Position numbers and translations under genes: made by a program. Positions 1,664 through 17,735 of a stretch of DNA of 20,000 nt are shown in pieces. This DNA is from an uncultured virus (IMG/VR IMGVR_UViG_3300045005_000111) (taxonomy: Duplodnaviria; Heunggongvirae; Uroviricota; Caudoviricetes). The notes under the pieces are model-generated. The model saw only the letters and a list, made by a program, of their open reading frames with translations. It searched no databases and was not told the DNA's origin. Where the stretch lies: the IMG/VR virus record IMGVR_UViG_3300045005_000111; one strand, given 5' to 3'. Numbering within the stretch: position 1 is the first letter of the stretch; each line of letters begins with the position of its first letter.

Positions 1664-1677
1664 GCCCCTCCGTGGGC
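1664..1677 (-). promoter_or_regulatory. SD hairpin GCCC-ACGGAG-GGGC (CsrA/RsmA-type site) of the tape measure gene
   Basis: Plus strand gcccctccgtgggc; on the mRNA a 4-bp stem with a C-G-closed ACGGAG hexaloop overlapping the SD. Confidence 0.7.
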
Positions 1678-2166
1678 TCACTTCGCGCCTTTGTTGATGC
1701 TGCCGGCGGACCAACCGTCAAAACCGCCCTGCTTCGTCCCCGACCGGTTCAGTTTGGAGGTCAGATCGTTGGCGATCTTCTCCATCTTCGATCGGAATAC
1801 CGGGTCGCTCATGTCCCCGATGACCCGCTTGTATTTCTCGATCAACGATTCGTTCTCGGACCCCAGGCCGGCGGCGTCCTTTTGCTGGTTCAACCACGGC
1901 CGCAGCGCAGCATCCAAATCCTCGAGCGTCTTGCCCGACAGCTTCCATGCCTTCTCGAAGAGCTTGGCGTCGTCGGTGCCGAGAGCCCCAGTGTACCGCA
2001 TGTGACGTGCGAGAGCCACTTCAGCCCGCTTCGAGCCGGAGTACGCCTTGGTGAGCCAGCTCAGCCGCAGAGACCACCGGCGATCGAGCAGATCGGCGTC
2101 GCGGAAGTCCACGACGCCGTCGGCGGCCATCCCCACAAGAAGGGACGCTACCCGATCGCCTTCCAG
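1678..2166 (-). CDS. Tail assembly chaperone frameshift extension (gpT-like), 162 codons; alternative independent start ATG at 2130
   Basis: This is the C-terminal part of ORF 1678..2679 and lies in the -1 frame relative to the end of the chaperone gene. It fills the gap before the tape measure gene, and ATG 2130 has no convincing SD. Confidence 0.65.
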   Translation of the reverse strand: MEGDRVASLLVGMAADGVVDFRDADLLDRRWSLRLSWLTKAYSGSKRAEVALARHMRYTGALGTDDAKLFEKAWKLSGKTLEDLDAALRPWLNQQKDAAGLGSENESLIEKYKRVIGDMSDPVFRSKMEKIANDLTSKLNRSGTKQGGFDGWSAGSINKGAK

Positions 2167-3401
2167 AAATCCGGGTTTTCCGCCATCACCTGCAGCTTGT
2201 CGCAGACCGCCTGGAACTCGTTGTAGGCGTGGCCGATGATCGAGCGGAGCTGCTCGGTCGGACACACCTGTTCGATCACGGCGTCGAACACCTCGACCAG
2301 TTTGGTGTCGGGGAACTTCGGCGGGTCGCTCTCGATCTCCTCGATCGGCGGCACCTCGATCGTTCCGTTCACGTCGCTTTCGATCTTCTCGATCGACATT
2401 ATCATTCTGTACGTCATCAGATTCCGCCAGTAGAACGGCGTGTCGTTCACCAGGCGGTTCTTGAGATCCGACTGCGCGTCCACCACGATCTGGCGGAACG
2501 CCATGTCCACTTCTCGGGAGGTGAGAGAGCGGAACACGAGTTTGAGCTGGCCGCCGAACAGGAGCCGTTCTTGACGAAACCGTTGGCCGCCGAGAACGGA
2601 CTGGACGAAGTTCAACTTGTCCAAGTCGGTGATCGGAGTGTCGTCCTGTTTCTTCAGATCGAAGCCGCAGTGAGGACACTCGACCGGATGGAGCAGCCCG
2701 CCGGCGCCCTCTGGGGGAGAGGCGACGCGCGGGGGTAACGCCGAACCGGCCGCCGTGGGGGACGGCGTGTATGCCGGTTGCGCCGGGGGCTGCGGGGGAG
2801 CTGTCGTCCGTCCACCAGGCGAGAGATCGTCGACGAACTCGACGACGCCCTGTTGGGGACGTGGTTGGGGGGAAGGAGCGGACGCAGCACGGGGGGACGG
2901 GTCGACCGGGTTGGCGCCCGGCCTCATGATCTTGGCGAACGCGTCGATGGCCTCTGCCGCCGATCGGACTTTGTCTGGCGGAGCCTTCGAGATATCGACC
3001 GGCAGCGGCGCTTTCAGGACGTGGTCCATCTTCACGTCCGGATGATACGGAACCGGACCTTCGAGCGCCCTCTGGTGCGCGGCGATCTGTTGGGCGATGT
3101 CGGTCGGGACCGGTTTCTTCGGATCGACGTTGAGTTTCTTCAATCCCTCGAGCTCAAAATCCGTGTACACGGTGCCGGCAGGAATGAATTCAGGACCCTG
3201 CGGCGCGGGACCAACGACGCCGCCAAGAGATGCCGGGTCGACACCGGACTGTCCGAGAAAGTTAATCACGCCCTCCGGCAGCTCGGCCGGAAATCCCGCC
3301 GGCAGACTGGTCGGCGGAGGAGGCGGTACGGGAGCGGCCGGAGCAGCGGGCGGAGACGGCTTCTTCGCCGACCCGACGCGACGGATGGGTTTGTCTGCCA
3401 T
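2148..3401 (-). CDS. Tail assembly chaperone (gpG-like), 417 aa, with Pro-rich N-terminal region and CxxC (CPHCG)
   Basis: ATG at 3401 with AAAGGA SD. The C-terminal domain has a chaperone-like 'LKLVFRSLTSREVD' segment and ends ENPDFWKAIG. It lies just upstream of the tape measure gene. Confidence 0.65.
   Translation of the reverse strand: MADKPIRRVGSAKKPSPPAAPAAPVPPPPPTSLPAGFPAELPEGVINFLGQSGVDPASLGGVVGPAPQGPEFIPAGTVYTDFELEGLKKLNVDPKKPVPTDIAQQIAAHQRALEGPVPYHPDVKMDHVLKAPLPVDISKAPPDKVRSAAEAIDAFAKIMRPGANPVDPSPRAASAPSPQPRPQQGVVEFVDDLSPGGRTTAPPQPPAQPAYTPSPTAAGSALPPRVASPPEGAGGLLHPVECPHCGFDLKKQDDTPITDLDKLNFVQSVLGGQRFRQERLLFGGQLKLVFRSLTSREVDMAFRQIVVDAQSDLKNRLVNDTPFYWRNLMTYRMIMSIEKIESDVNGTIEVPPIEEIESDPPKFPDTKLVEVFDAVIEQVCPTEQLRSIIGHAYNEFQAVCDKLQVMAENPDFWKAIG
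2166..2181 (-). promoter_or_regulatory. Candidate programmed -1 frameshift site (G GAA AAC CCG GAT TTC)
   Basis: mRNA GCG GAA AAC CCG GAT TTC TGG contains slippery candidates G-GAT-TTC (2166-2172) and G-GAA-AAC (2175-2181). The -1 frame reads GKPGFLEGDRVAS and stays open to 1678. Confidence 0.55.
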
Positions 3402-3419
3402 GTGAGCATCCTTTCTCAC
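3402..3419 (-). promoter_or_regulatory. SD hairpin GTGAG-AAAGGATG-CTCAC (GGA in loop)
   Basis: 5-bp stem immediately before the chaperone ATG; the loop contains AAGGAUG. Confidence 0.55.
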
Positions 3420-6040
3420 CCGATGATCGGGTAGTTGCCGTCCAGCGCCGCCGCCTTGGCGGTCGCGGGCTTGGGTTCTTCGTGTTCTTCCCTGGCCTTC
3501 GGTTTACCCTGTGGCACATCGTACAGCATCAGATCGACCGTGCGGAAGTTCGATCCCGTCCAGCAGTCTTTGCCGGGCCACGGATAAGTCGTCTCGGACC
3601 CGGCCATGACCGGTTTCTCGGTCCACTTCTGCGTCGTCTGACCTGCCAATCGACTGCGCTGCTGCCAGCGGCTCTCGTACAGCTTGTAGTTTTCCGTCTT
3701 GCACTGTGTTGTCGAGCGGAACGAGAACTCGATGTACTCCTGGGTCTGATCGTTTCCGACCCGGTTGATAGGGTAGTGCGGTGTGTCGAGCTTCTTGTTG
3801 TACGTCTCCCCGCAGGACTCGCACCCCTCGTTGATGATCGACCGGATCCGTTCGAGGTTGGACTGCACCTGCCCCAGACCCGGATCCGACAGCGACGGGA
3901 CCAGGTTACTATAGGCATCGGCGTCGGAAGTGAAGACGTGACCCTGAGCCACAAACACGGAATTCTGGAACTGGGCGTAACCCTTCGCCAGCAAGTCGCG
4001 GTCGGCCATCAGGTACCCGCACACCACCGTGGCGGTCTTCGAGTACCAGTTGCAGTCCGAGTACGAACCCTCCTTACCGAACGCGTCGAACACGTTCTGG
4101 TCGACCAAGTTGAAGTTCGACTGGCCCTGTAGGACGATGTCGCCTTTGCTCTTGGCCGAATCGAGGACGATGTTGCCGACCTTTCCTTCTGCCCCCGAGC
4201 GAACGTATACGTCGTTGACCGCCAGAATGCCGATGATGCCCTCGCTCTTGAGAAGCACGCCGTTCGACTTTACGTCGGTGCCGACTTTGCCGACGAACTC
4301 CTGGTCGAAGCCCTTCGCCCGACTCTCGAGAAGCAACGCCCCTTTCCCCGAGTTGCCGGCAGTGATCTGCGTGTTGAACTCCGACTTGACGCGGACGTCC
4401 TCCGTCGTCGCCGACAATTCGACGTTCTTGTAACCCCGGACGACGGCGTCGCGACCGGCCAGGGTGACGGCGTTGCGCCCGGCCCGGTTTAACACGTCGC
4501 CGGGAGCGGACACCTCGGCCGTGCCGTCGATGAACCGCAGCTCCTCACCGTGGCCGCCGGCCAGAACCATGTTGCCGCCGGGCAGGAGCTTGATCATCGA
4601 CATCAGCTTGTAGAACTTCGCCTTGTACCGGTGGTCGACCTTGAATTCGACGGGCTCCGAGTCGTCGAAGAACTGCTGGTCGGCGAGTACGCCGAACGGC
4701 ACCTGCTCCTCGGTACCTTGAACCTCGTCCGGCTCGCGAAGCTCGAAGTCTTTTTCGTGGTAGTGGAACGGGTGGTCGCCCCGCCACTGCATCGAGTACG
4801 AAGTGTCGTCGTCGGACGCCAGGGCGCGGATAACCCCCTCGTTCTCCCCGTTCACGTCCAGCGGGGCTTTCATCTTGTGCGAGCTGTTGTCGTACCCCGA
4901 CTCGACGGAATCGCCGGTCTTGTCCTCCGGCCGCTTGACGCGGGTCGGCGGCGCCCACGGCGGAGTCATGGCGATCGTGATGCCCTGAGCCGACCGTAGG
5001 AAGTAGTACCCGTCCATCGCCAGGGCTTCTTCCCACGCCGCTTTCGTGTCGGCCGGATCCTTCAGCCGGTTGAGTTCGCCCTCCTCTGGAGGCAGAACCA
5101 TGACGCGGCGGAATCCCTGACCCAAATAACCCTGGTACTCACGGAACCGATAGAACGCGGCCTGGTCGTCGTGCTTGGTGTCGAGATTGGCCCGGTACGG
5201 CTCGTCCTGCTGCGTCTGCTCGGCGGTGTACGACTTGGTCGGATCGGTGCCCTTCTCGAACGCCCCGAGCGCTTCGTGCGGGTACGGAGTTGTGCCCACC
5301 TCCCGACTGAATTCGCCCTCGTCGTTGAGCTGCTCGTCTTCGCGGCCGCCGGATCGAATCTGCACGTTTTCGCCGGCCATGCGAGCGAGCTGGTCGTGAT
5401 AGAACGCCCAGAACCCGGTGTTCTCGTCCGCCCGCAGAAACGCCATGAACGAGTCGACGAACACCGCGACGCCGGTCTCGGCTATGTATCCCCACTCGCC
5501 GAGAGCCGTCTCGTCGAGCGGACGGCCGTTGGAGAAGTCGACGATACCGTGCTTCTGGATCTGCAGCAGGGCCGTGATGACCTGCTGACTGGCAGGGGCG
5601 TGCCCGCTGGCCTGGGAGATGTAGTCCGAGATCACCTGCCGCTTATCGGAGACGTACGGCGGCTCGACGCCGATGATGCATCCGTATCCGGACCGTGGGT
5701 GCTTCACATAGAAGACGCGGCTGTTGGGCTGGAGTGCCCCGATACGACACACGCCCACAGGAGTCAGGGCAGCGTCGGACAGGAGACAGCAGGAGATGAT
5801 GATATTGCCCTGGTCCGGGGTCACCCGGTACCAGCCGAAGAACGGCATGACCTCGGTCACCCGCCCCGAGCGTACCTGGAGCTGATTACCGAGGTCGAGA
5901 TGAGCCTGGCCCGACGACCCGACGGCGTCGGACTTCGGCTGCGACTTGTCGATCTGGGCCTCGAGGCGCTGAACCTGCGCCTCGAGCCCGACCACCATGT
6001 TCTGCAGCGAACTGATGATCTCCGCGATGTTGACCGGCAT
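3416..6040 (-). CDS. Baseplate spike/hub-like protein (gp5/gpV/VgrG-like), 874 aa
   Basis: N-terminal coiled coil, then an OB-fold-like segment (RSGRVTEVMPFFGWYRV...GALQPNSRVFYV), then a beta-helix-like repeat region (GNMVLAGGHGEELRFIDGTAEVSAPGDVLNRAGRNAVTLAGRDAVVRG). GGGAG SD; tail module context. Confidence 0.55.
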   Translation of the reverse strand: MPVNIAEIISSLQNMVVGLEAQVQRLEAQIDKSQPKSDAVGSSGQAHLDLGNQLQVRSGRVTEVMPFFGWYRVTPDQGNIIISCCLLSDAALTPVGVCRIGALQPNSRVFYVKHPRSGYGCIIGVEPPYVSDKRQVISDYISQASGHAPASQQVITALLQIQKHGIVDFSNGRPLDETALGEWGYIAETGVAVFVDSFMAFLRADENTGFWAFYHDQLARMAGENVQIRSGGREDEQLNDEGEFSREVGTTPYPHEALGAFEKGTDPTKSYTAEQTQQDEPYRANLDTKHDDQAAFYRFREYQGYLGQGFRRVMVLPPEEGELNRLKDPADTKAAWEEALAMDGYYFLRSAQGITIAMTPPWAPPTRVKRPEDKTGDSVESGYDNSSHKMKAPLDVNGENEGVIRALASDDDTSYSMQWRGDHPFHYHEKDFELREPDEVQGTEEQVPFGVLADQQFFDDSEPVEFKVDHRYKAKFYKLMSMIKLLPGGNMVLAGGHGEELRFIDGTAEVSAPGDVLNRAGRNAVTLAGRDAVVRGYKNVELSATTEDVRVKSEFNTQITAGNSGKGALLLESRAKGFDQEFVGKVGTDVKSNGVLLKSEGIIGILAVNDVYVRSGAEGKVGNIVLDSAKSKGDIVLQGQSNFNLVDQNVFDAFGKEGSYSDCNWYSKTATVVCGYLMADRDLLAKGYAQFQNSVFVAQGHVFTSDADAYSNLVPSLSDPGLGQVQSNLERIRSIINEGCESCGETYNKKLDTPHYPINRVGNDQTQEYIEFSFRSTTQCKTENYKLYESRWQQRSRLAGQTTQKWTEKPVMAGSETTYPWPGKDCWTGSNFRTVDLMLYDVPQGKPKAREEHEEPKPATAKAAALDGNYPIIG

Positions 6041-6087: not shown

Positions 6088-6552
6088 TTACGGGATCCGG
6101 TTGAGTTGCCCGAACATTCCCTGGACCTGCTCGTTGATGAGCATGTCCTGGGCCTGCATCGAGTACGCGACGGACATCAACACGACCGCCTTCGCGATCA
6201 GGATGATGAAGCCGCCCACCCCGGCGCCGGAACAGGCCGAATTCCCGAGTAGCAGGAAGACGTCCTTGTCGCCCTTGGAACACGGATTCCCCAGAAGGGC
6301 GAGGAACGCCGACCCGACGATCGACGGGCCGATGATCTTGCCGAGCTGGATCTGGCCGGTGGTACGACCAACGACGTAGTAGCGGTTGTTCGAGCCGATC
6401 TCGAACAGAGTGTTCACGGTCTGACTGTAGTTGATGCTGAGCTGCTGGATCAAGTGGGTAGCCATCGCTTGACCACCGATGATCAGCACGCTCGCATCGG
6501 CAGCGAAGGCCCCGGCGAAGGGGCTGTCGTTGCGACCGAAAATGTCAGCCAT
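6088..6552 (-). CDS. Tail tube protein, 154 aa
   Basis: Immediately downstream of the sheath; tube-like motif LIQQLSINYSQTVNTLFEIGS..YYVVGRTTGQIQL; typical size; GGAGG SD. Confidence 0.8.
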   Translation of the reverse strand: MADIFGRNDSPFAGAFAADASVLIIGGQAMATHLIQQLSINYSQTVNTLFEIGSNNRYYVVGRTTGQIQLGKIIGPSIVGSAFLALLGNPCSKGDKDVFLLLGNSACSGAGVGGFIILIAKAVVLMSVAYSMQAQDMLINEQVQGMFGQLNRIP

Positions 6553-6558: not shown

Positions 6559-6572
6559 GGACCTCCGTGTCC
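6559..6572 (-). promoter_or_regulatory. SD hairpin GGAC-ACGGAG-GTCC (CsrA/RsmA-type site) of the tube gene
   Basis: mRNA ACACGGAGGU matches (A/U)CANGGANG(U/A) exactly; 4-bp stem. Confidence 0.75.
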
Positions 6573-6573
6573 G

Positions 6574-6604
6574 TTAAGGAGGGGCGTCGTGCCCCTCCCG
6601 TTAA
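6574..6604. other. Strong intergenic hairpin between sheath and tube (GGAGGGGC-5 nt-GCCCCTCC, extendable with flanking TTAA)
   Basis: Perfect 8-bp inverted repeat 6578-6585/6591-6598; no U-tract on the coding strand. Confidence 0.6.
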
Positions 6605-6632: not shown

Positions 6633-9401
6633 TCAGACCACGAGCCGCAACTCGATGTTGTTGATCGGGTACGGCACAGTCAGGTCGATCGTAATGACCA
6701 CGCGGTCCTTGAGCAGGGCGTGTTGTCGCAGCTCCCTGATGTTGTAGCCGACCAGTTGCGGGCCGATACGGGGGGTCCGGTCGACCGACATCTCGTCGAG
6801 GGCCGAGGTGATGGTGTTACGCATCATCAGCAGCACGCCGTCGACCACGTTGCTCTTGCCGATGTACGGCTCGAGAGCGGCGAGCAGAGTGTAGCTGATC
6901 GAGTCCACGTTGACCCGGATCATTTCCTCGCGACGGTTCAGGTCGGTGTTGTCGGTCGTCAACGCGTGACGCGTGATGATCGACCCGTCCTTCGCCTTCA
7001 CCACGATCCACCCGCCGGCGGCCGCGATGGTGTTCAGGTGGACGCTGTTAAGGCTCTTCACCAGCTCCCCGACGTCGTCGATCCCCGCGATCTCGACGTT
7101 CGTCAGACCCTGGTGCGGGTTGACGGCCGACCGAAGGCCGGCGGCAGAACAGGCCAGGAAGTAACCCGGGAAGCTGACACCGGCGTTGCCGACCGTCTCG
7201 TTGACGATCGCGCAAACCCGACGGCTGGACAACCGACCGACTTCATCGACCACCGCCGTCGCCAGCCCGGCGCCCTTCAAGCTCCGCCAGACCTCCACTT
7301 TCTGCGCGACCGAGATGGGAACGTCGTGCCCGTCGGTCAGGCGGAGGGTGTTCTCCGACAGAACTTCGTCGACCGTGAACTCGGTCCAGGTGTCGTTGTC
7401 GAACCCGTCCGTCGAGTACAGGAACCGGACCTTGTCCCCCGGCTCCACGTCGTTGGTCAAAAACTTCGCGTTGCCGGCCGGGACCGACAGCCGGGTGTAC
7501 TGCGTTCCGCTGGTCAGCGGATCGTCGGACAGCGTCGCCAGCGCGACCTCGCCGTCCGAAGTGGTGGCTTCCGAGACGATGGCCTTCTCGTCCGGCACGC
7601 TGATCCCGCAGAACATGCCCCGCCACCGCCCGTTCTCCGGGCTCGACTGCCCTTCGACGTGGGCCTTCCACGCGTCGATGACGGTCTTGTTGGTGGTCAG
7701 CGGGACCAAGTTGTACAGGTCGTCGCGGCCGACCAGGATCTCGAGCGCGTCGAACCAGGTGTCGGTGTCGTTCGGATCCTCGACCGCCGTGAAGCGGACC
7801 GGCTGGCCGTTGCTGTTCTGCAGCGCCATGAAGACGCCCCAGAACAGCGGGTTGTCCGGACTCGCCTGGCCGAGCAGGTCGGGCAGATTCGCCACATCGT
7901 CGGCCGACTCGAACTCGGCGATGTAGGTCGGCAGCCACGCGCGGTAATGGAGGAACAGCTCGCCGCCCTTGAGCGGCAGCGGAAGCTGCTCGCCGTCGTC
8001 GGTCCACGTCGAGTCGTAGAGGGTGATCCCGCTCTCGACAGTGAACTCGGTGTCCGCCTGCGAGTAGTTCGTCAGCGGCGGGCTCGTCACGCGGTTCTTC
8101 TCGATGACGATGTCCTTCTTGATGAACAGCTTCAGGTCGAGGTCGGTCGCGTCCTGAATCTCTTCCGGCAGGTCGTCGGCCAGGATCAGGGTCTGCATCG
8201 ACCCTTCCTTCTCCGCCTCGACCTCGATGTAGTACTTGTCGCCCTTGCACAGGCCGGAGGCGCCGGCAAAGGAGACGGTCACGTCCTTCGTTCCGGCCGC
8301 GAACGCGGTGGACGCGGCGGTGACCTTCGTCGGGCCGCTCTTGTCCACGCCGGTCGTGGTGGTGACGGTGATCTCCGGCTTGTTGGCGAAAGCGCCGCCC
8401 TTCGTGACCTCGATGATGTAGGTGGTGTTCTTGGTGCCGCTGTAGGTGCCGCCGCTGGTCGCGACGGGCGCGGTGAACGCCTGCTTGACGCGCACCTTCC
8501 ACTTCTGGCCGACAACCAGGTCGTCCGGGCTGATGTCTTCGAGCTCGGCCGCCGAAGACGCCGAGTTCGTCTCGACGCGGTCGAACTCGATCTTCAGGCC
8601 CCGTTTGCCGATGAGCGTGAACCCGCCTACCGGCGAAGGCTCGACGTCCGAATCCTGGTCGTGGCCGCTGGCCGTGGTGACGCGCAGGCGGGCCGTGGTC
8701 AGGTCGCCGCTGATCGAGCTGCGGGTGACCTCGATTGTGTAGCTCTCGTCGAGATCGCCCAGCTCGCGACCGTCGTAGCTGGACCCGTCGGCCGTCAGGG
8801 TGATGGTGTTCTTGAGCCCGCTGAGCTCGTCGACCGTCACTTCGTAGCTCTGGTCGTCTTGGTTGGTGTCGGCGTCGGTCGCCGACCCGGTGACCGGGGC
8901 CACCAGATCGCCGGCGAACCCGTTGACGGTGGTCCACAGCTCGAAGCTGTCGCCGCTTCCCGACTCGACGCCACGGACGTACGCCGTGTCGCCGACCTTC
9001 ACGTCGCGGTCGTACAGGCTGTCAGAACGCGGGTAGTCGTCGGTGTTCTTCTTGAACGCGTGGCTCGCCGAGCGAATCCGGTTCTTGTAAGTGGCGACGG
9101 GCACGACGAGGCCGCCCACGGCGATCAGGTCGGCGAAGTACTGCAGCAGAGCGCCGTCGCAGTAGAGCTTGGTGTAGTCGAAGTCGACTTGGGCGCCGTC
9201 GGGGCGTTCGGGCCAGGCGTACGCCTGGTCGGAAATCGGGTCGTACTGGCCGAGGCCGATGACGGCTTTCTCGTCCTCGTCGTCGTAGCGGAACAAGCGG
9301 GCGTGACCGCCTGTGATGTGGGCCTGACGCGGCGCCTCCGTCGCGGTCGGAGCAACGCGGAACTCCTGGTACACCAGGACGCGGGGCAGAACGTACGCCA
9401 T
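6633..9401 (-). CDS. Contractile tail sheath protein, 922 aa
   Basis: N-terminus MAYVLPRVLVYQEF resembles the sheath Y..PGV...E start. The C-terminal sheath domain reads RVNVDSISY...YIGKSN...DRVVITIDLTVPYPINNIELRLVV. Followed by the tube gene. Confidence 0.9.
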   Translation of the reverse strand: MAYVLPRVLVYQEFRVAPTATEAPRQAHITGGHARLFRYDDEDEKAVIGLGQYDPISDQAYAWPERPDGAQVDFDYTKLYCDGALLQYFADLIAVGGLVVPVATYKNRIRSASHAFKKNTDDYPRSDSLYDRDVKVGDTAYVRGVESGSGDSFELWTTVNGFAGDLVAPVTGSATDADTNQDDQSYEVTVDELSGLKNTITLTADGSSYDGRELGDLDESYTIEVTRSSISGDLTTARLRVTTASGHDQDSDVEPSPVGGFTLIGKRGLKIEFDRVETNSASSAAELEDISPDDLVVGQKWKVRVKQAFTAPVATSGGTYSGTKNTTYIIEVTKGGAFANKPEITVTTTTGVDKSGPTKVTAASTAFAAGTKDVTVSFAGASGLCKGDKYYIEVEAEKEGSMQTLILADDLPEEIQDATDLDLKLFIKKDIVIEKNRVTSPPLTNYSQADTEFTVESGITLYDSTWTDDGEQLPLPLKGGELFLHYRAWLPTYIAEFESADDVANLPDLLGQASPDNPLFWGVFMALQNSNGQPVRFTAVEDPNDTDTWFDALEILVGRDDLYNLVPLTTNKTVIDAWKAHVEGQSSPENGRWRGMFCGISVPDEKAIVSEATTSDGEVALATLSDDPLTSGTQYTRLSVPAGNAKFLTNDVEPGDKVRFLYSTDGFDNDTWTEFTVDEVLSENTLRLTDGHDVPISVAQKVEVWRSLKGAGLATAVVDEVGRLSSRRVCAIVNETVGNAGVSFPGYFLACSAAGLRSAVNPHQGLTNVEIAGIDDVGELVKSLNSVHLNTIAAAGGWIVVKAKDGSIITRHALTTDNTDLNRREEMIRVNVDSISYTLLAALEPYIGKSNVVDGVLLMMRNTITSALDEMSVDRTPRIGPQLVGYNIRELRQHALLKDRVVITIDLTVPYPINNIELRLVV

Positions 9402-9404: not shown

Positions 9405-9443
9405 TTTGGCCTCCGTGCCAAAAGTTCGGGTGACTTCCTGTCA
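9405..9443 (-). promoter_or_regulatory. Two GGA-loop hairpins in the sheath leader: TGAC-AGGAA-GTCA (9431-9443) and TTTGGC-ACGGAG-GCCAAA (9405-9422, SD)
   Basis: Read directly from the sequence; the two GGA motifs are 21 nt apart. Confidence 0.75.
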
Positions 9444-9454: not shown

Positions 9455-10075
9455 TCACGGCAAGAACGAGGACAAAACCACGCGCTTCAGAGTCGGGGCA
9501 TAGGGTTGCAGCAGCCACTTCTCTTCGGCTGCGTAGCTCACGGTCACCGGGACCGCGTAGTTCTCCCTCGCCTCCTCCAGCTCGAACAGAGCGCCGACGC
9601 CCACCAGAACGAACCGCATCATGTCGAGTTCTTGCCGGATGATCGGCCCGAACTGTAGCAGTTCTCGGTAGACTTCGCCACCCAGAATCTCCGCTTCTGT
9701 ACCGTGTCCTGCGATACAGAACAAGGTGTGCGAGCCGGTGAGGAAGGTCGAGTAGTACCGCTCACCGGTCAATGATACTCCACCCTGCAGTCTGTCGTCT
9801 ATACCGGCCCGCTGCACCTGCCATTCATTCCGTTTGATGATAACCGCCGGTCGTTTCTCGACGAGAGTCGGTTTGTACTTCGTGATCGACTCGATCAGGA
9901 TGTTCGACGAATCGACCTCCTTCCACAGCTTGCCCCGCAACTCCTTGTTCTCAACGAAATCCGGGTTCGAGAAGTGGTACTTGAACCATTCTCGTAGGAA
10001 TCCCGTCATCAGGTGCGGTCGGGGCGCGATCGCGCACCAGTTACTTACCAGCCCTGTTCTGATTTCCGGCGGCAT
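9455..10075 (-). CDS. Probable tail terminator/completion protein, 206 aa
   Basis: Start moved to ATG 10075 (MPPEIRTG) with a purine-rich SD. It sits between the neck genes and the sheath; the 'KRPAVIIKR' segment and beta-rich C-terminus fit tail-terminator proteins. Confidence 0.5.
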   Translation of the reverse strand: MPPEIRTGLVSNWCAIAPRPHLMTGFLREWFKYHFSNPDFVENKELRGKLWKEVDSSNILIESITKYKPTLVEKRPAVIIKRNEWQVQRAGIDDRLQGGVSLTGERYYSTFLTGSHTLFCIAGHGTEAEILGGEVYRELLQFGPIIRQELDMMRFVLVGVGALFELEEARENYAVPVTVSYAAEEKWLLQPYAPTLKRVVLSSFLP

Positions 10076-10238
10076 CCTTGCCCCCTGTCTGGTACGGCGG
10101 GACGTACTTATCTGCCGCCGCAAGCTGTATGCGCCCGTCTGACGACAGACCAAGGGCTGCGTGACACTGCTGGGTCAGCTTTTCGTCGGGCTCCCACTCG
10201 GTGAGCCGGATCCGCTTCGGACTGATCGACTTGATCAT
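10041..10238 (-). CDS. Small hypothetical protein, 65 aa (MIKSISPKRIRLTEWEPDEKL...)
   Basis: ATGA overlap with the upstream stop (10235-10238), GGAGG SD, fills the gap; overlaps the next gene by 35 nt. Confidence 0.55.
   Translation of the reverse strand: MIKSISPKRIRLTEWEPDEKLTQQCHAALGLSSDGRIQLAAADKYVPPYQTGGKDAAGNQNRAGK
10071..10082 (-). promoter_or_regulatory. Hairpin GGC-AAGGAT-GCC (CAAGGAUG) overlapping the start codon
   Basis: Plus strand ggcatccttgcc; C-G-closed ANGGAN hexaloop that includes the AUG. Confidence 0.6.
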
Positions 10239-11056
10239 GTTCCCTCCAGCGGGATCTTGTACGCCCGGTCGGTGAACGGCAGCTCTCGCATGGTCAGCGT
10301 ACTCGCGATCGTGTATCCCCGGTGGACGGCCAAGTCGTTCACGTCGCGGACGATGTACCTCATGTCGCTCCCCTTCACCACGAAAACGTCGTACACGTCG
10401 ATATTCGGGTCGCCGAGAGCCCGGCATCCCTGAACAACGGCCGACTCGGTCGTACCGGCCGCCTGGAGCTGATCCATCTGCTCCTCAGTGTCGACGGGCG
10501 GAATCTCGATGTACACGTCAGGAATGGCCGCGTAGTACCCCTCGACAATACCGGTGCCGTTGCATTCCGGACAGTCCGAGTTGGTCACTTCATCGGTCAG
10601 ACGCTCGACGCAGGTCGTGCATTTGCGGCCGTACCGTTTCCGTTTGAGCAGGTACCCCTGGACGCCGACGAAATCGTCGAGACGGAGCCGCTCCTTGCGG
10701 ATCATTTCGGTGGCGAGTCGCCAGTCGCGGAAATTCAGGTTCTCCTTCGGCGAGACGGCCGACGAGATGTACGTCCTGACCGGGGTCGTAAGAACCACCC
10801 GGTAGTTCCAGTCCTGATTCTTGCCGTATACCCGCTGCTCGTCGTCGACCGCGTAGTACCCGTTGGACACCGACAGACCGATGTCCTCCCAGTCCGACCC
10901 GTCCACGCCGCCGTACGACCCCTGGAGCTGGAAAACATGGGGCAGCGGATCGGTAAACAGCCGGTGGAGCTGCCACTCGACCTTCGCGCCGCCGGTCGTC
11001 GCGTACCGCACCGTGACGCGCTCGAACGGAGTGTTCAGTTTGTCACGCGGCGGCAT
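10235..11056 (-). CDS. Neck/head-closure protein with Zn-finger (CTTC...CPECNGTG), 273 aa
   Basis: KRKRYGRKCTTC...CPECNGTGIVEGY is a motif type seen in myovirus neck proteins; TGATG coupling to the upstream gene; GGAGG SD. Confidence 0.6.
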   Translation of the reverse strand: MPPRDKLNTPFERVTVRYATTGGAKVEWQLHRLFTDPLPHVFQLQGSYGGVDGSDWEDIGLSVSNGYYAVDDEQRVYGKNQDWNYRVVLTTPVRTYISSAVSPKENLNFRDWRLATEMIRKERLRLDDFVGVQGYLLKRKRYGRKCTTCVERLTDEVTNSDCPECNGTGIVEGYYAAIPDVYIEIPPVDTEEQMDQLQAAGTTESAVVQGCRALGDPNIDVYDVFVVKGSDMRYIVRDVNDLAVHRGYTIASTLTMRELPFTDRAYKIPLEGT

Positions 11057-11983: not shown

Positions 11984-13240
11984 TCAGATCAAGCACGGCC
12001 CGGGAGCCCGCTGCCCCTTGAGAGCAACGAGATCCGCGAAGACGTACGGAATGTTGTGTGCCTTGTGGAATTCAGAGGGGGACGCGGTCCAGACTCTGAC
12101 TCCCTGAAAACGGCACTGAATCTCCGGGACGTACTTCGCGTACTCCCGATTCGTGTAGTACCAGAACGAGTTCTCGTTCATGAAGTTAACGTGCGTGGGA
12201 TCTTGGAAGGCCCCGCGCCCGTCGCTCGACGGCGTTCCCGACAGAATCCATCCGCCGGGGGCGAGCACGCGGTAGAAGTCGTTCATCGCGAATACGAACT
12301 TCTCCCTCGGAACGTGCTCGAAAAAATCGAAGGCCCGGATAACCCCCACCGAATTATCGGCGAATGGCAGCGGCCCGTCTCCGATCCGGTGGATCACGTC
12401 CGCGTCGACCAGGTCGACCGTCGTGAATCCGGGCGGGGCGTTGTGGGCTCCCCCCAAATCGAGCTTCGCCAGGCCGCTGCGCTCGGCCCACCGCGTAGCA
12501 AGCGGATGGACGTAGCGATTCAGGTTGGCGAGTTGCTGCTTGGCGATCGCGGTTCCCTGGTCGACCGACGTGTTGTTATTTTTCTTGTCAAGAACCCGCC
12601 GGTACATGTACAGACAGTCGGGAACGTACACGAAGGCTACGTCGGCCAGATACGTCCGGCACACCAGGTCGTGGTCGTCACCTACGGCGAGAGTCGGATC
12701 GTGCCCGCCGCTCTTGTAGTACGCGTCGCGGTGCCAGGCCCGGACGTGGTTGGGACAGTAATAGACCTCGCTCAGCGAACGGGCGCAGGGCTCAAACGCT
12801 TTCTGGGCCTGATACTTCTTGCCCTCGTACTCGAAGTCGTAACCCCGCCACCCGTGGAAGTTCGAGTACTCCTCGCTCGTCCCGTTCGGATAGTAGCTGA
12901 CGAAGTCCGAGTAGTAGAACCCGACGCCGGACTTTTCGACCTCGTTCTTGAGTACCATCAGGGCGTTGGGCGTCAGCATGTCGTCGTGGTCGAGTTCGAC
13001 GTACACTTCGCCCGAACAACGCGTACAGGCGTATCGCTTGAGCGCCCCAATCCCCTTGCCGTTCGATGGCGCAATCACGACCCGGCGGTCTTCGCGTATG
13101 ACTGCCGGAATGTCGAACCGCTTCGGGCCGTTGGGCACAATCACCCACTCCCACTGGGTGTACGTCTGCGCGGTCAGCGACCGGTAGCAATCGAGCAGCC
13201 ACCGGGGGTCGTTCGTCGGAGTGAACACGCTGAACTTCAC
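11984..13240 (-). CDS. Family 2 glycosyltransferase fused to a class I SAM-dependent methyltransferase-like domain, 418 aa
   Basis: GT2 motifs FSVFTPT, SLTAQTY.QWEWVIV, ELDHDD (DxD) and GDDHDL. Methyltransferase motifs KLDLGG, LPFADNSV, DFFEHV, YRVLAPGGW and AFQDPTH. Confidence 0.9.
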   Translation of the reverse strand: MKFSVFTPTNDPRWLLDCYRSLTAQTYTQWEWVIVPNGPKRFDIPAVIREDRRVVIAPSNGKGIGALKRYACTRCSGEVYVELDHDDMLTPNALMVLKNEVEKSGVGFYYSDFVSYYPNGTSEEYSNFHGWRGYDFEYEGKKYQAQKAFEPCARSLSEVYYCPNHVRAWHRDAYYKSGGHDPTLAVGDDHDLVCRTYLADVAFVYVPDCLYMYRRVLDKKNNNTSVDQGTAIAKQQLANLNRYVHPLATRWAERSGLAKLDLGGAHNAPPGFTTVDLVDADVIHRIGDGPLPFADNSVGVIRAFDFFEHVPREKFVFAMNDFYRVLAPGGWILSGTPSSDGRGAFQDPTHVNFMNENSFWYYTNREYAKYVPEIQCRFQGVRVWTASPSEFHKAHNIPYVFADLVALKGQRAPGPCLI

Positions 13241-13261: not shown

Positions 13262-13293
13262 GAAAAACGAAGCCGGCGGTAATTGCCGCCGGC
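13262..13293 (-). terminator. Rho-independent terminator at the end of the head module
   Basis: mRNA GCCGGCGG-CAAUUA-CCGCCGGC followed by UUCGUUUUU. Confidence 0.75.
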
Positions 13294-13320
13294 CCCTTCC
13301 GGTTACATCGGACGGCCGAC

Positions 13321-13659
13321 TCAGCTCCCGATGGAGCTCGAGTACGCGCCCCAGCTCGGGTCGGTGGCGCTGACCGTGTTGTTGTTGACCTTGATGGTCT
13401 TCGTGACGTCGAGCGTCTCGTCGTAGAACAGCGGCGGCGGGGTGCGGACGATCACCAGATCGCCGTTGTCCAGGGCGTTCAGCAGCGCCCGACGCTTACG
13501 GCCCTGGGTCACGCCCGCGAAAGACTGGCGGGGGTCGCCGTCCAGTTCGTACTCTTCGCCGGCGGCGAGACGCTTGCCGCGAGGGCCGAGGAAGCCGAAG
13601 AACGCTTCCCGCCCGGTCATGTTCCGGACGAGCGTCTTCAGGTTGTCTTTGGCGGCCAT
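13321..13659 (-). CDS. Hypothetical head-module protein, 112 aa
   Basis: ATG with AGGAGG SD; same codon bias as neighbours; ends before the terminator. Confidence 0.75.
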   Translation of the reverse strand: MAAKDNLKTLVRNMTGREAFFGFLGPRGKRLAAGEEYELDGDPRQSFAGVTQGRKRRALLNALDNGDLVIVRTPPPLFYDETLDVTKTIKVNNNTVSATDPSWGAYSSSIGS

Positions 13660-13662
13660 GTT

Positions 13663-13679
13663 CGAGTCCTCCTGACTCG
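13663..13679 (-). promoter_or_regulatory. SD hairpin CGAGTC-AGGAG-GACTCG (GGA pentaloop)
   Basis: Perfect 6-bp stem with a C-G-closed AGGAG loop. Confidence 0.7.
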
Positions 13680-13749
13680 GGGGTGTAAACCGGGTCGGCG
13701 TTCCTGAACGGTGGAGTTACCGCAGGCCGGCCGCCCCGGTAGTGTAGCT

Positions 13750-14133
13750 TCAGCCGGCGAGTTCGCCAGCGAGAGCAGCCTGGAACGTCTTCACCGCCTG
13801 CGCGACCACGGGATCGGCGGCGAGGTTGGCGCTTGCATTCTTGATCAGGCTCTCTTCGTTGGTAGAGCCCTTGTACCCGAGGGCGGCCATCTGCCCGTCG
13901 AGGTTGTGCGCGGCTTGCGCGATGAAGGAGGTCTGGGCCTGCGCCTGCTTGACCTGCTCCTGTTCGCGGACCTGGCTGAGTCGGCTGCCGATGCCGAGGA
14001 GGTACTCGACCTCCTGTTCGTTTTGGGGAACGATCCCGAAGTCGCTCGCCAACTTCTCGAGGAACACCGGGACGTAAATTTCTCGCGTCAGGAACGCGTG
14101 GGCATCCTGCGGAGTCATGGCTTCTTGCGACAT
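13750..14133 (-). CDS. Hypothetical head-associated protein, 127 aa (MSQEAMTPQDAHAFL...)
   Basis: Start moved to ATG 14133 with GGGAGG SD; contains K-x-A motifs (VKQA, IKNA). Confidence 0.75.
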   Translation of the reverse strand: MSQEAMTPQDAHAFLTREIYVPVFLEKLASDFGIVPQNEQEVEYLLGIGSRLSQVREQEQVKQAQAQTSFIAQAAHNLDGQMAALGYKGSTNEESLIKNASANLAADPVVAQAVKTFQAALAGELAG

Positions 14134-14136: not shown

Positions 14137-14150
14137 AGCCCTCCCTGGCT
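14137..14150 (-). promoter_or_regulatory. SD hairpin AGCC-AGGGAG-GGCT (CsrA/RsmA-type site)
   Basis: 4-bp stem with a C-G-closed ANGGAG hexaloop. Confidence 0.7.
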
Positions 14151-14241: not shown

Positions 14242-15174
14242 TCACGCGAAGTCGGCTCGCGCGACGGCATTCGTGTTGCCGATGGCCCCGCCGAGGGTCT
14301 CGTAGGCGAAGAACTCGAGCATGAACGCCTTGCGTTCGATGTACATCGTGGTGTCTTCCAAAACATACGATTTGCCCAGGAACTTCGGGTCCGCGAACAT
14401 GAACATGCTGTCCGTCGGGACCAGGTCGTGCTTGATCGTGATGATCCAGCGCGCCCCCATGAAGTTCTGCTCGGACCAGCCGTTGAAGAGGATGTCCTGC
14501 GACTTGTCGCCGCCGGTCTCCTCGCGGCCGAACTTCATGATCTCGCGGATCGTCAGGTTGTTGATCAAGCAGGTCGCCGTCTCCAGCCGGGAGATCGTGC
14601 GCGGCAGGATCTTGAAGCTGTCCTGCAGCGTTTCACGGGTGATCCCACCGTAGATGGTCTCCCACTGGACCTGACCCGACTGCTCGACGACCGAGTCGGC
14701 CGCCGACCCCAGCGCCGCGTTGACTGCGTCGATGAACTTTTTATCTTCTTCCGCCAGCATATCTTTGATGCTGTTGTCCGACAGCACCTGGCGGATGTCG
14801 ATGTAGTAGGTCCGCAGTTCGTCCACGTCTTTCGTGAAGCGCGGCGTGACGATGCGGTCGAAGCTCACCCGGTAGCGCTGGCCCCGGATGTACAACGACA
14901 TCGGGAGCGTGGCGAACGGGATGCTCATCGCAGCCGGCGAATCGGGCTCGCGATCGACGATCTTGACGGGCTTGTCAGTGTCGTACTGACGATCCAGGTC
15001 GTCGTTGCTGATTTGGACCGGCGGCAGGACGCGCCGGAAGAAGCCTTCTTCACGCATCCGATACCGCGTGAAGTCGTTGACCGAATCGAGAGCCCGCTTC
15101 TCCATGCCCGGAGTGGACAGGTAGTTCAGGAACGTCTCGTTCGCCAGTTGGATCTCGCTCGTGGCGGCAGGCAT
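14242..15174 (-). CDS. Major capsid protein (HK97 fold), 310 aa
   Basis: Downstream of protease, scaffold and decoration genes; RMREEGFFRRVLPP, IVTPRFTKDVDELR and DNSIKDMLAEEDKKFI segments fit HK97-fold capsids; strong AAGGAGGT SD. Confidence 0.8.
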   Translation of the reverse strand: MPAATSEIQLANETFLNYLSTPGMEKRALDSVNDFTRYRMREEGFFRRVLPPVQISNDDLDRQYDTDKPVKIVDREPDSPAAMSIPFATLPMSLYIRGQRYRVSFDRIVTPRFTKDVDELRTYYIDIRQVLSDNSIKDMLAEEDKKFIDAVNAALGSAADSVVEQSGQVQWETIYGGITRETLQDSFKILPRTISRLETATCLINNLTIREIMKFGREETGGDKSQDILFNGWSEQNFMGARWIITIKHDLVPTDSMFMFADPKFLGKSYVLEDTTMYIERKAFMLEFFAYETLGGAIGNTNAVARADFA

Positions 15175-15177
15175 TTT

Positions 15178-15193
15178 CAGACCTCCTTGTCTG
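15178..15193 (-). promoter_or_regulatory. SD hairpin CAGAC-AAGGAG-GTCTG (CsrA/RsmA-type site) of the capsid gene
   Basis: mRNA ACAAGGAGGU matches the consensus exactly; 5-bp stem. Confidence 0.75.
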
Positions 15194-15242: not shown

Positions 15243-15800
15243 TTACAGGCCGCTGGCGCCTGGGTAGTGGCCCGGCCAGAATGCGAGCACCTTGTGACGG
15301 TCGGACTGGCGCTTGCGGGGCGCGCGGCTGACGTGGCCGACGATCGCCGTGGCTAGTTGCGGGGTGGCGGATTGCGTCTTCACGACGCTCTGGTTTGTCA
15401 GACGCCCGCCGGTGGTCTGATTGCTGTTGCTCGCGACAGCGCGGAGCGGCTGGTTCGGCAAGTACGTCTGGTCGTCGTCGTACTCGGTCGTCTCCAGCTC
15501 GTAGGCCCCCTTCGCGACGAGACCGTTGAGTGTGCCCGACGGCCCGATCGGGTACCACAGCGTCCCGCCGGAGTTGGTCACATCGGAATCGTAGCTGTTT
15601 TGCAGCAGGAAGATCGGCATGTGGTCGCCCGTGCAACCCATCTCGAACTCGCCTTCGTCGTTCAGGTGGACACACCGACCCTGGTAGGCGTCGATGGTCA
15701 CGTTGCTCGACAGCTTGGCGGAGAAGTCGAGTGCCGCCATGTGGAACCACCCCTTCGGGGCGTCCAGCGTGTGGTCGAACATCTGGCGCGGATTAGCCAT
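15243..15800 (-). CDS. Probable capsid decoration/cement protein, 185 aa
   Basis: Immediately upstream of the capsid gene; beta-rich with a 'GAYELETTEYD...Y.PNQPL' segment; size and position typical. Confidence 0.5.
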   Translation of the reverse strand: MANPRQMFDHTLDAPKGWFHMAALDFSAKLSSNVTIDAYQGRCVHLNDEGEFEMGCTGDHMPIFLLQNSYDSDVTNSGGTLWYPIGPSGTLNGLVAKGAYELETTEYDDDQTYLPNQPLRAVASNSNQTTGGRLTNQSVVKTQSATPQLATAIVGHVSRAPRKRQSDRHKVLAFWPGHYPGASGL

Positions 15801-15805
15801 CTCAG

Positions 15806-15821
15806 TGGACCTCCATGTCCA
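15806..15821 (-). promoter_or_regulatory. SD hairpin TGGAC-ATGGAG-GTCCA (CsrA/RsmA-type site)
   Basis: mRNA ACAUGGAGGU matches the consensus exactly; 5-bp stem. Confidence 0.75.
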
Positions 15822-15867
15822 GTGGGGTTGAGAATCGTTCTCGGTTTGGCCTCACGGCCGTTGGTGG

Positions 15868-16272
15868 TTAGCCGCCGATACCGAGGCCGGCGAGGAACAC
15901 CTTGTCACTTTCCCGGACCTCCGAGGTCCGCCGCCCGACATACGGGCTGTCGAGCGAGCTGACGCCAGCGGCGCCCGCCTTCTTTTCCTGCACGGCCGTC
16001 CCGAGGGTACGGGGCCGGATCGTGTTGTTGACGTCGGCGGTCTTGATCAGGATCTCCAGCACCCGGGCCGGGTCCTTCAGCGCGGCGGCCGCCTTCTCGC
16101 GGTCCGCCGGGTCGATGCGCTCGTTCGCGATGAGTGCCTCGATCGCGGCCGGAATCAGGGCGGCAACCTTCTGGTCGGCCGCCCGCTTCACGGTCAACTC
16201 CTTCTCCGCGACCTCCAGCGCAGTCGCGCTGCACTGGACATAGTCGAGGAGTTTTTCGTTCAGGTCCGGCAT
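15868..16272 (-). CDS. Small helical head/scaffold-associated protein, 134 aa
   Basis: AAGGAGG SD; Ala-rich helix; several K-x-A motifs (KRA, KVA, KAA, KTA, KKA). Confidence 0.75.
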   Translation of the reverse strand: MPDLNEKLLDYVQCSATALEVAEKELTVKRAADQKVAALIPAAIEALIANERIDPADREKAAAALKDPARVLEILIKTADVNNTIRPRTLGTAVQEKKAGAAGVSSLDSPYVGRRTSEVRESDKVFLAGLGIGG

Positions 16273-16276
16273 TTTA

Positions 16277-16290
16277 CGCCCTCCTTGGCG
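16277..16290 (-). promoter_or_regulatory. SD hairpin CGCC-AAGGAG-GGCG (CsrA/RsmA-type site)
   Basis: 4-bp stem with a C-G-closed hexaloop. Confidence 0.7.
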
Positions 16291-16330
16291 CTGTTCAGTT
16301 GGTGGAACTCGACCGGCGAGTTAACGCCAG

Positions 16331-17695
16331 TCAGTTGACGATCTCGGCGATGCACTTCTTCAGCTCGTCCCGCAGCCGTCGCTCGGCGGCCGTCTTGGCT
16401 TCGGAGAAGCGGAACCGCCCCTGCTTCTGGTACGTCTTCGCTGTCTTCACGAGCTGAATCAGGTTCCGACGAACCTGTTGAGCTTGTTTGACGCGGGCCA
16501 TCTTCGTCGGGTCACCGCCAGCGCCGGCAAGGGGATCGCCGCCACCCGCGCCCGCAAGAGGATCACCGCCCGCACCAGCGAGTGGATCGCCGCCACCGCC
16601 TGCGCCGGCGAGCGGATCACCGCCGCCACCGCCGCCACTGCCCTGCAGTGCCGCCATGATCTCGTCAGGCGTCACGCCCATTTCCATCAGGGCCATGAGG
16701 AGCTGGTTGACCGCTTCCTCCTGACCGCCGCCACCGCCGCCACCGGCCATCGGGTCTCCGCCACCGCCGCCACCGGCCATCGCGCCGAGAGCCGACGGGT
16801 CCAGCCCGAGACCGCCGCCTTCGTCACCGCCGCCGCCACCGCCGCCGCCACCGCCTTCGTCACCGCCACCGCCGCTGTCGGACTTGCTCTCGCTCTTCGA
16901 GCCACTGTCCGAATCGCTGGACGAAGAACCGCTGTCCTCTTCGTCGGCGGCGCGCTTGTTGACAGCCTGCTTCTGGAACTCGACCAGGTAGTTCCCGGTC
17001 ATGACGGCGGCGGCGAGCGCGTCGCGAATCGTCCCTTCGACCGCCGCCTGGACGGCCTGCTTCTCCTGCTCGTCGCCGTTAACGCCGGCAGCGGTAGCCG
17101 CCTGATACCCGGCCGCAGCGGCCTGGGCCACGGCAGCTTTCTGAACCTGCGGGGCCGGCGTGGTCTTCGCGGGGGTAGTCGGCGTCTTGACCGGAGTCGC
17201 AGGACTGGCGCCGGCGACCTTCTGACCTGCCGCCGCAATCGTGGCGAGAATGTCGTTGGCCTTCTTTTCGCTGAGCTTCTTCAGCTCCTCGAACTTCATC
17301 GACCCGTACTTCTCGTTGTCGTCGACGCTGGCCGGGTGGTCGGTGCCGGGATCGTCCTTCTTGTCCTTGTAGTTCTGCTCGTTGGCTTCGTCGTTACCGG
17401 TCTCGGTCGACGTCACGCCGATGTTGAATTGCTGGCTTTCCTGGTCGGGGCCTTTTTCCGACGCGGAGTCGACGTTGAGCGGAATCTGCTTCTTGACGTC
17501 GGACGAGTTCTCGCTCGAACGGGCGCCTTCCGCAGCGTTCTGGAGTTGGTCGTCGATGTTCTTGACGGGGTGGCTCGTTTCGCCGCCCACGGAGCCGGGC
17601 TCAGAGAGGGTGTCGGCCTTCTTCTGGGCCGCCGCCTTCTTTTCGCCTTGGACCTCCGCGAGGAAGCCGCGCAGTTGATCGAAGAGCTGAGGCAT
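16331..17695 (-). CDS. Scaffold-like / prohead core protein, 454 aa, low complexity
   Basis: Between protease and capsid genes; acidic, Ala/Gly-rich and apparently disordered; about ten K-x-A motifs. Confidence 0.6.
   Translation of the reverse strand: MPQLFDQLRGFLAEVQGEKKAAAQKKADTLSEPGSVGGETSHPVKNIDDQLQNAAEGARSSENSSDVKKQIPLNVDSASEKGPDQESQQFNIGVTSTETGNDEANEQNYKDKKDDPGTDHPASVDDNEKYGSMKFEELKKLSEKKANDILATIAAAGQKVAGASPATPVKTPTTPAKTTPAPQVQKAAVAQAAAAGYQAATAAGVNGDEQEKQAVQAAVEGTIRDALAAAVMTGNYLVEFQKQAVNKRAADEEDSGSSSSDSDSGSKSESKSDSGGGGDEGGGGGGGGGGDEGGGLGLDPSALGAMAGGGGGGDPMAGGGGGGGQEEAVNQLLMALMEMGVTPDEIMAALQGSGGGGGGDPLAGAGGGGDPLAGAGGDPLAGAGGGDPLAGAGGDPTKMARVKQAQQVRRNLIQLVKTAKTYQKQGRFRFSEAKTAAERRLRDELKKCIAEIVN
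16508..16880 (-). repeat. Gly-rich coding repeats (GGGDPLAGA x4, GGGGDEGGG x2, poly-Gly)
   Basis: Seen in the translation; DNA copies differ at synonymous positions. Confidence 0.85.
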
Positions 17696-17735
17696 TCCTT
17701 GTCACTCCTTGACTTTTGGGTCCGGCTTCCTGCCG
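17693..17735 (-). promoter_or_regulatory. Three GGA motifs in the scaffold leader: CGGC-AGGAA-GCCG hairpin, GTCA-AGGAG-TGAC SD hairpin, and CAAGGA-AUG
   Basis: Read directly at 17723-17735, 17701-17713 and 17693-17701. Confidence 0.65.

Follow-up and report, generated by a model that had tools for sequence, protein, structure and literature searches.

Why should the ribosome-binding sites of phage virion genes be folded into the loops of short hairpins, and which factor, if any, would read them? The question is raised by a 20,000-nt stretch of DNA from an uncultured virus (IMG/VR record IMGVR_UViG_3300045005_000111), referred to below as the window, in which all genes lie on the minus strand. 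At seven start codons (1659, 6552, 9401, 14133, 15174, 15800 and 16272) the GGA of the Shine-Dalgarno sequence (SD) sits within an A-N-G-G-A-G hexaloop, carried by a perfect stem of 4–6 bp and closed by a C-G pair in all seven. From the end of the GGA to the start codon there are 8–11 nt at each of these sites, and the hairpins overlap the ribosome-binding site. Four further starts (3401, 10238, 13659 and 17695) hold the SD GGA in other loops, so that a GGA hairpin is present at 11 of the 16 GGA-bearing starts. An exact scan of both strands for a stem of at least 3 bp around an A.GGA. hexaloop returned nine matches on the minus (coding) strand and none on the plus strand. The sites are listed below (ORF, open reading frame; MFE, minimum free energy structure).

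1664..1677, minus: SD hairpin GCCC-ACGGAG-GGGC, 4 nt upstream of the GTG start at 1659 of an open-ended ORF of at least 553 aa; MFE of the 87-nt leader
3402..3419, minus: hairpin GTGAG-AAAGGATG-CTCAC, 8-nt loop, abutting the ATG at 3401; isolated dG −4.6 kcal/mol; not the MFE in the 87-nt leader
6559..6572, minus: SD hairpin GGAC-ACGGAG-GTCC, ahead of the ATG at 6552 of a 154-aa gene that follows the sheath gene
9405..9422, minus: SD hairpin TTTGGC-ACGGAG-GCCAAA, ahead of the sheath gene ATG at 9401
9431..9443, minus: second GGA-loop hairpin of the sheath leader, TGAC-AGGAA-GTCA, 21 nt upstream of the SD hairpin
10071..10082, minus: weak site GGC-AAGGAT-GCC, 3 bp, ATG within loop/stem, gene uncertain
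10241..10254, minus: hairpin TCCC-GCTGGA-GGGA, ahead of the ATG at 10238 of a 66-aa ORF whose start overlaps the upstream stop
13663..13679, minus: SD hairpin CGAGTC-AGGAG-GACTCG, C-G-closed pentaloop, ahead of the ATG at 13659 (112 aa)
14137..14150, minus: SD hairpin AGCC-AGGGAG-GGCT, ahead of the ATG at 14133 (127 aa)
15178..15193, minus: SD hairpin CAGAC-AAGGAG-GTCTG, ahead of the major head protein ATG at 15174
15806..15821, minus: SD hairpin TGGAC-ATGGAG-GTCCA, ahead of the ATG at 15800 of a 185-aa gene
16277..16290, minus: SD hairpin CGCC-AAGGAG-GGCG, ahead of the ATG at 16272 (134 aa)
17701..17713, minus: hairpin GTCA-AGGAG-TGAC, weak (dG −1.3 kcal/mol), ahead of the ATG at 17695 (454 aa)
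17723..17735, minus: second GGA-loop hairpin in the leader of the 17695 gene, CGGC-AGGAA-GCCG, 22 nt upstream
6270, minus: intragenic hexaloop match with a 3-bp stem, from the exact scan

A preliminary description of this DNA had counted eight hexaloop genes. All were recovered exactly, in coordinates and in sequence, but the eighth (10071) is weak, because its stem has 3 bp only, the GGA lies in a candidate start codon rather than in an SD, and the ORF is without orthologue support. The three sites with GGA in other loops that it had named (3402, 13663 and 17701) are real as well, and the hairpin at 10241–10254 is added here.

Enrichment over chance and base composition

The hairpins are real and lie far above chance. 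Among the 82 A.GGA. hexamers of the coding strand, 11 are at starts and 71 elsewhere; a stem of at least 4 bp is present on 7 of the 11 and on none of the 71 (Fisher 8.7e-8), the background for any hexaloop with such a stem being 130 in 19,974 positions. A flank-swap null that keeps position-specific composition gave 1.16 ± 1.03 starts with a hairpin (maximum 4.9 in 1000) against 11 of 16 observed. We obtained a similar contrast with SD-preserving shuffles, the comparison that the preliminary description had proposed: 1.02 ± 0.97 in any register (maximum 6 in 5000) for 11 observed and, far beyond this, 0.09 ± 0.30 in the hexaloop register for 7 observed.

Three Pseudomonas phages unrelated to the window (phi297, phiCTX and YuA; 62–64% GC, 143 kb summed) served as a control for GC content, with candidate sites loosely defined as GGAG plus a start. 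Hexaloop-register hairpins were found at none of 190 such sites in the control phages and at 7 of 23 in the window; for hairpins in any register the counts were 10/190 and 10/23. GC content as the sole cause is ruled out by this result and by relatives of 57–59% GC that are without hairpins. An operator acting at the DNA level for a dimeric protein is likewise ruled out, since no two sites share the same arms and the signal is confined to one strand.

Conservation and covariation in related phages

Gene content, large syntenic relatives and large nearest cultured phages together identify the window as the virion module of a large, uncultured phage of myovirus-like type. The tail sheath gene (6633–9401, minus, 922 aa; PHROG 2839 and 279) and the major head protein gene (14242–15174, minus, 310 aa; PHROG 2522) are supported by family matches, and the Pfam match in the window is a glycosyltransferase-methyltransferase fusion (11984–13240, minus); the remaining proteins of the window have no PHROG or Pfam match. 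Thus, among the gene labels proposed earlier, sheath and capsid stand, while 'tape measure', 'tube', 'tail terminator' and 'decoration' are without PHROG support. Where we write 'tube' for the 154-aa gene starting at 6552 and portal for the 454-aa gene starting at 17695, these are labels by position only. No similarity to cultured phages was detected at the DNA level for the window. The nearest cultured capsids, at 29–31% identity, are those of Salmonella phage Arash and of Vibrio phages (181–188 kb), and a large protein collection holds 1696 capsid homologues. Relatives were located through the major head protein gene (loci L001–L011 and L067–L100). IMG/VR and JGI/ENA metagenomes contain syntenic ones, whose contigs reach ~190 kb and have 42–68% GC, and the phage of the window belongs to a family of ~190-kb uncultured phages.

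In the closest relative examined (L069; 88.3% identity across 12.6 kb), 107 of the 109 hairpin bases are identical to those of the window, compared with 440 of 552 (79.7%) other intergenic bases and 88.7% of coding bases. Covariation was scored over all 113 distinct SD sites that contain an A.GGA. hexamer, without selection for pairing. A 7-bp helix was paired in 46.4% of cells, as against 37.2 ± 1.5 in shuffles and 33–40% in shifted registers; the covariation score was 0.276 versus 0.171, and none of 500 shuffles reached the observed pairing or score. On the grounds of this covariation and of the 107/109 conserved bases, the hairpins are RNA structures under selection.

Orthologous sites in L083, L084, L010, L011, L006–8 and L072 keep the hexaloop register with different stems. 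At the capsid start the stems are CAGAC/GTCTG in the window, CGATAC/GTATCG in L084, GCAC/GTGC in L083, TTTC/GAAA in L010 and AAAC/GTTT in L011; at the 15800 gene they are GGAC/GTCC in the window, AGAC/GTCT in L006–8, AAAGAC/GTCTTT in L072 and ACAATC/GATTGT in L083. The 6552 site is identical in L069 and reads ACGAC-AAGGAG-GTCGT in L083 and ATAACC-TGAGGA-GGTTAT in L001. Sheath-site stems are TTGGC/GCCAA in L069 and L083 and GGC/GCC in L006–8; the upstream sheath-leader hairpin (9431..9443) is identical in L069 and absent in L083. Orthologues of the 13663 site are AATGCC-ACGGAG-GGCATT (L084) and TAACC-TAGGA-GGTTA (L006), that of the 16277 site is TCGTTC-ACGGAG-GAACGA (L084), and those of the 17701 site in L010, L011 and L086 are GTCAA-A(A)GGAG-TTGAC. 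The 14137 hairpin is identical across L067–L069, and the 10241 hairpin is retained in L069 with a 7-nt loop; for the 10071 ORF, tblastn detected no orthologue in L069. The earlier statement that structure rather than sequence is conserved therefore holds: the stems vary, pair and covary, and the orthologues keep the loop register.

Hairpin density is patchy within the family. It is dense in the window clade, L083 and L084 (63–68% GC for the window and L067–69, 67% and 65%, respectively) and moderate in L010, L011 and L006–8; hairpins are absent in L003, L080 and L082 (57–59% GC). We studied five large relatives genome-wide (G001–G005). Flank-swap analysis gave 25 observed hairpins versus 11.4 ± 3.2 expected in G004, 19 versus 11.1 in G003, 13 versus 7.5 in G002, 11 versus 9.3 in G005 and 6 versus 7.5 in G001. 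The strongest hexaloops of the low-GC relatives are TTACGAC-ATGGAG-GTCGTAA (G003 90738 and G004 13337), ahead of a ~314-aa gene, and GCCAC-A(T/G)GGAG-GTGGC (G003 35766 and G004 155229), ahead of a ~80-aa gene 3 kb from csrA. Both are common to G003 and G004, and their proteins are unannotated; for G004, comparing its best hairpin-bearing genes with PHROGs was uninformative.

A different element was seen in L001–L004, where the SD (GACAC-AAGGAG or GACAC-AACGGAGG) is not enclosed but directly abutted by a hairpin of conserved sequence, GTGTC-N(4-7)-GACAC. This hairpin stands upstream of orthologues of the 15800, 9401 and 17695 genes and also at G001 129838 and 137714, and may be an alternative leader element. 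The start of the G001 contig carries three copies of a ~45-nt element (43–57, 355–369 and 510–524), GTAGGA-GTGTCTGAAAGACAC-ACCAAGGTGCAACTCCTTGGCGGTGAT, which contain the same GTGTC/GACAC hairpin.

Comparison with CsrA/RsmE target sites

High-affinity targets of CsrA/RsmE are described by Duss et al. 2014 (PMC4005645), in the sections covered here, as an ANGGAX hexaloop placed directly on a stem; Thr5 contacts the closing C-G pair through its G, it does not matter which base N is, and pentaloops form an intermediate class. Seven window sites combine the hexaloop directly on a stem with the C-G closing pair, and the pentaloops of the window fall in the intermediate class as that account defines it. 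The CsrA-type architecture noted in the preliminary description is thus borne out against the rule as stated in those sections.

We then considered loop composition in 55 family hexaloop hairpins (loop NNGGAN, A at position 1 not forced), a set that includes near-identical orthologues and is hence not independent, which lessens the weight its counts lend to a CsrA reading; 409 ordinary GGAG SDs of the five large relatives were used for comparison. Loop position 1 (−2 from GGAG) is A in 47/55 hairpins versus 161/409 ordinary SDs (Fisher 4e-11). At position 2 (−1 from GGAG), A is found in 20/55 versus 253/409 (Fisher 4e-4) and C in 19/55 versus 42/409 (Fisher 1e-5). A C-G pair closes 44 of the 55 loops, and position 6 is G in 42. 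In ordinary SDs an A-rich base adjoins GGAG, as SD/anti-SD pairing predicts, and the hairpins show the reverse. With A at position 1 and position 2 free, the loop composition therefore agrees better with A(N)GGA recognition, in which N is looped out, than with an extension of the SD.

The nearest structural parallel is the RsmE-hcnA complex (2JPP), which shares the ANGGAX hexaloop on a stem, the C-G closing pair and a GGA over the ribosome-binding site; N is variable, being C in hcnA and in three window sites. CsrA/RsmE systems also resemble the leaders of the sheath and portal-position genes, where a second GGA hairpin, 21–22 nt upstream, may give a dual-site layout. Unlike hcnA, the candidate targets of the window are the phage's own virion genes, many in one module; their loop position 6 is nearly always G (SD GGAGG) and not U.

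csrA genes in the phage family

A search for csrA, suggested in the preliminary description, found none in the 20-kb window. Among the five large relatives, four (G001–G004) encode PF02599 matches of 57–74 bits (cut-off 27), with a second, weaker copy in G001. The proteins have 52–75 aa, residues L2, R6, R44 and E46 are invariant, and of the PDB structures RsmE bound to hcnA (2JPP; E 2.6e-10) matches them best, with no gap across residues 1–49; as predicted proteins these are canonical CsrA. No SD hairpin was found at the csrA leaders of the relatives. The CsrA alignment being too divergent for a locus search, further csrA loci were found through a neighbouring sbcD-like gene, and csrA adjoins this same gene in 9 of 34 further loci (3 being G002 copies). 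In distant large phages (L012–L015, L108, L114, L124 and L128–L130) csrA lies beside, and divergent from, a calcineurin/SbcD-like phosphoesterase gene, and the gene following csrA has 208 aa in G002 and 210 aa in G001. Cultured phages of Vibrio, Pseudomonas, Providencia, Acinetobacter and Bacillus have annotated csrA genes as well. Among Atlas CsrA clusters, the nearest come from Uroviricota and Pseudomonadota, which is a host lead only.

A proposed CsrA-type gating of virion gene translation

These results can be brought together in a model in which, on the late mRNA, most independently initiating virion genes hold their SD GGA in a C-G-closed hexaloop hairpin. A CsrA-family dimer, either phage-encoded (as in 4/5 large relatives) or from the host, would bind the hairpin loops and occlude the ribosome-binding site, thereby gating translation of the major virion proteins until CsrA is titrated or outcompeted. 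Marginal stem stability (−4 to −7 kcal/mol) would let ribosomes open unbound sites. Such CsrA-type gating is, in our estimation, the best single explanation of the hairpins, with a probability of about one half. It is unlikely, on present indications, that the phage family goes further and runs a CsrA circuit of its own on capsid, sheath and other virion genes, as a translational timer or assembly checkpoint comparable to the FliW-CsrA-flagellin switch and independent of host Csr.

Several observations weigh against CsrA-type gating. The window itself, as said, lacks csrA, and csrA presence does not track hairpin enrichment among the five relatives: G001 shows no enrichment (6 vs 7.5) in spite of two csrA copies, G005 has no csrA that we could find, yet carries hairpins at capsid and portal, and the csrA-positive Pseudomonas phage phi297 shows no such hairpins. 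The second upstream hairpin is present in only 2 of the 11 window leaders. Folding energy is unremarkable and does not set the leaders apart: values for isolated hairpins run from −1.3 to −7.2 kcal/mol, and 34-nt leaders are no stabler than shuffles (z-scores −1.9 to +0.3), with the SD hairpin as MFE in 4/11 leaders of 34 nt and in 7/11 of 87 nt. Nor is it obvious why a phage would hold down translation of the genes for its own virion.

Nor were antagonists of CsrA found in the sequences searched. The Rfam families CsrB, CsrC and Rsm had no match in the window, in G004 or in 60 kb of G003; a scan of G001–G005 for GGA-dense intergenic RNAs gave no convincing candidate either, so that the multi-GGA small RNA of CsrB/RsmZ type whose search had been proposed did not turn up. 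Among the regions that came up as possible CsrB-like RNAs are two: G004 60349–60512 is unconvincing and probably a missed coding repeat; G002 13597–13862 (minus), which is intergenic and highly structured (−107 kcal/mol) with three TCTCACCCACGCGTGCGTGGATAAGG copies and 10 GGA, is a triple repeat not clearly CsrB-like. In Bacillus, CsrA is thought to restrain flagellin translation through GGA sites at the SD, within the FliW-CsrA-flagellin partner switch. The likeness, CsrA restraining a self-assembling structural protein, is an analogy only, and in contrast to that switch no FliW was found in the five large relatives.

The regulon interpretation offered in the preliminary description survives in part. 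Selected structures, CsrA-site architecture, loop composition and CsrA in four of five relatives speak for it; the missing correlation of csrA with hairpin density, the hairpin-free phage phi297 and the lack of a sponge RNA among the sequences searched do not. In the large relatives the hairpins are scattered genome-wide and not restricted to virion genes.

Alternative explanations

It is possible, although we favour it less than an even chance would require, that the hairpins act in cis and without a protein partner, displaying the SD or tuning translation. A local hairpin could keep the SD from long-range pairing in a GC-rich mRNA; alternatively, it could fix how often translation of the major virion proteins starts and in what proportions they are made, and stabilise the mRNA. 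Such a role would suit the distribution of sites, since a hairpin is present at 8/9 starts with at least 50 nt to the upstream stop versus 3/7 with shorter spacers, and long-spacer starts are where de novo initiation is needed. Hairpin use is also densest in the high-GC lineages (63–68%) and unrelated to csrA presence among relatives. However, the three unrelated phages of 62–64% GC and the family members of 57–59% GC (L003, L080 and L082) do without such hairpins. The loops themselves can be read both ways: G at position 6 in 42/55 retains the SD GGAG(G), but mere display has no need for a fixed hexaloop, A at position 1 or a free position 2, and the final G of GGAGG is hidden in the C-G closing pair, where larger loops would expose the SD better. 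The abutting GTGTC-N-GACAC hairpin of L001–L004 looks like another solution to the same problem.

Rather improbable is that the hairpins are operators for another phage RNA-binding protein or RNase (for example a RegA-like or coat-protein-like translational repressor, or a processing/stability determinant), with a coincidental resemblance to CsrA sites. Most family proteins are without Pfam or PHROG match, which leaves room for such a factor, and G005 carries hairpins where csrA was not found; against this, no candidate protein was identified, and four independent features of the CsrA rule match (hexaloop size, A1, GGA at positions 3–5 and the C-G closing pair).

Finally, an origin by chance or as a compositional by-product of GGAGG SDs in GC-rich DNA, to which ordinary folding z-scores and a 3′ arm that always begins with the G of GGAGG (making one pair cheap) might point, is refuted by nulls exceeded throughout, strand specificity (0 on the other strand), the GC-matched phages (0/190), compensatory stem changes in orthologues and 98% hairpin conservation.

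Other features of the virion module

The glycosyltransferase-2/methyltransferase fusion gene lies in the middle of the virion module. It is without an SD hairpin, is preceded by a terminator-like hairpin and T-run at 13269–13296, and occurs in a subset of relatives (L006–8, L068, L069, L083 and L084). Because of its mid-module position, the terminator-like hairpin ahead of it and the missing SD hairpin, it has the appearance of an inserted moron. Two long ORFs (1678–2679 and 2148–3401, minus), lying between the 874-aa gene and the last ORF, overlap by ~530 nt in different frames; they could be a programmed frameshift pair of the tail chaperone type or reflect a miscalled start. Just past the sheath gene, at 6578–6598 (minus), lies a strong hairpin, GGGAGGGGC-ACGAC-GCCCCTCC, whose CCUCC arm could pair with the SD of the next gene and does so in the 34-nt fold.

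Relation to known phage systems and significance

Phage-encoded CsrA/RsmA homologues, to which the canonical CsrA of the window's relatives is akin, have been catalogued in 30 of 2517 phage genomes (Sobrero & Valverde 2020, PMC7366521, in the part covered here). Phage RsmA was proposed to manipulate the host, e.g. its CRISPR-Cas (Campa et al. 2021, PMC8450108), and knock-down of csrA led to small plaques, its role in the phage cycle being described as 'not previously tested' (Adler et al. 2025, PMC11879866), again in the sections covered. Within those sections, the three papers propose host manipulation and name no RNA target on phage mRNA. Our literature search, with supplements outside its scope, found no CsrA-type sites on phage mRNAs, in agreement with the earlier remark that no phage late regulon of this kind has been described.

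The SAS element of Cluster K mycobacteriophages (Pope et al. 2011, PMC3203893), a conserved 13-nt GGGATAGGAGCCC on non-structural genes, has an unknown function for which a host or phage factor was proposed, according to the part of the paper covered. It resembles the window sites in being short, placed 3–7 nt before start codons, with AGGAG and symmetric outer parts (GGG...CCC). In contrast to SAS as it is presented there (PMC3203893), the window sites combine a hexaloop with stems that change from site to site and serve virion genes, and the hairpins do not belong to that class.

Phage CsrA has been catalogued since 2020, and the window hairpins supply concrete, synthesisable candidate RNA targets for it. 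If CsrA-type gating is true, it would suggest that phages have borrowed a bacterial regulator to govern the translation of their own late genes. Should the hairpins be CsrA-independent, phage late mRNAs would still contain a clear class of covarying structures at ribosome-binding sites, which could help in annotating starts and in studying how a loop-displayed SD functions.

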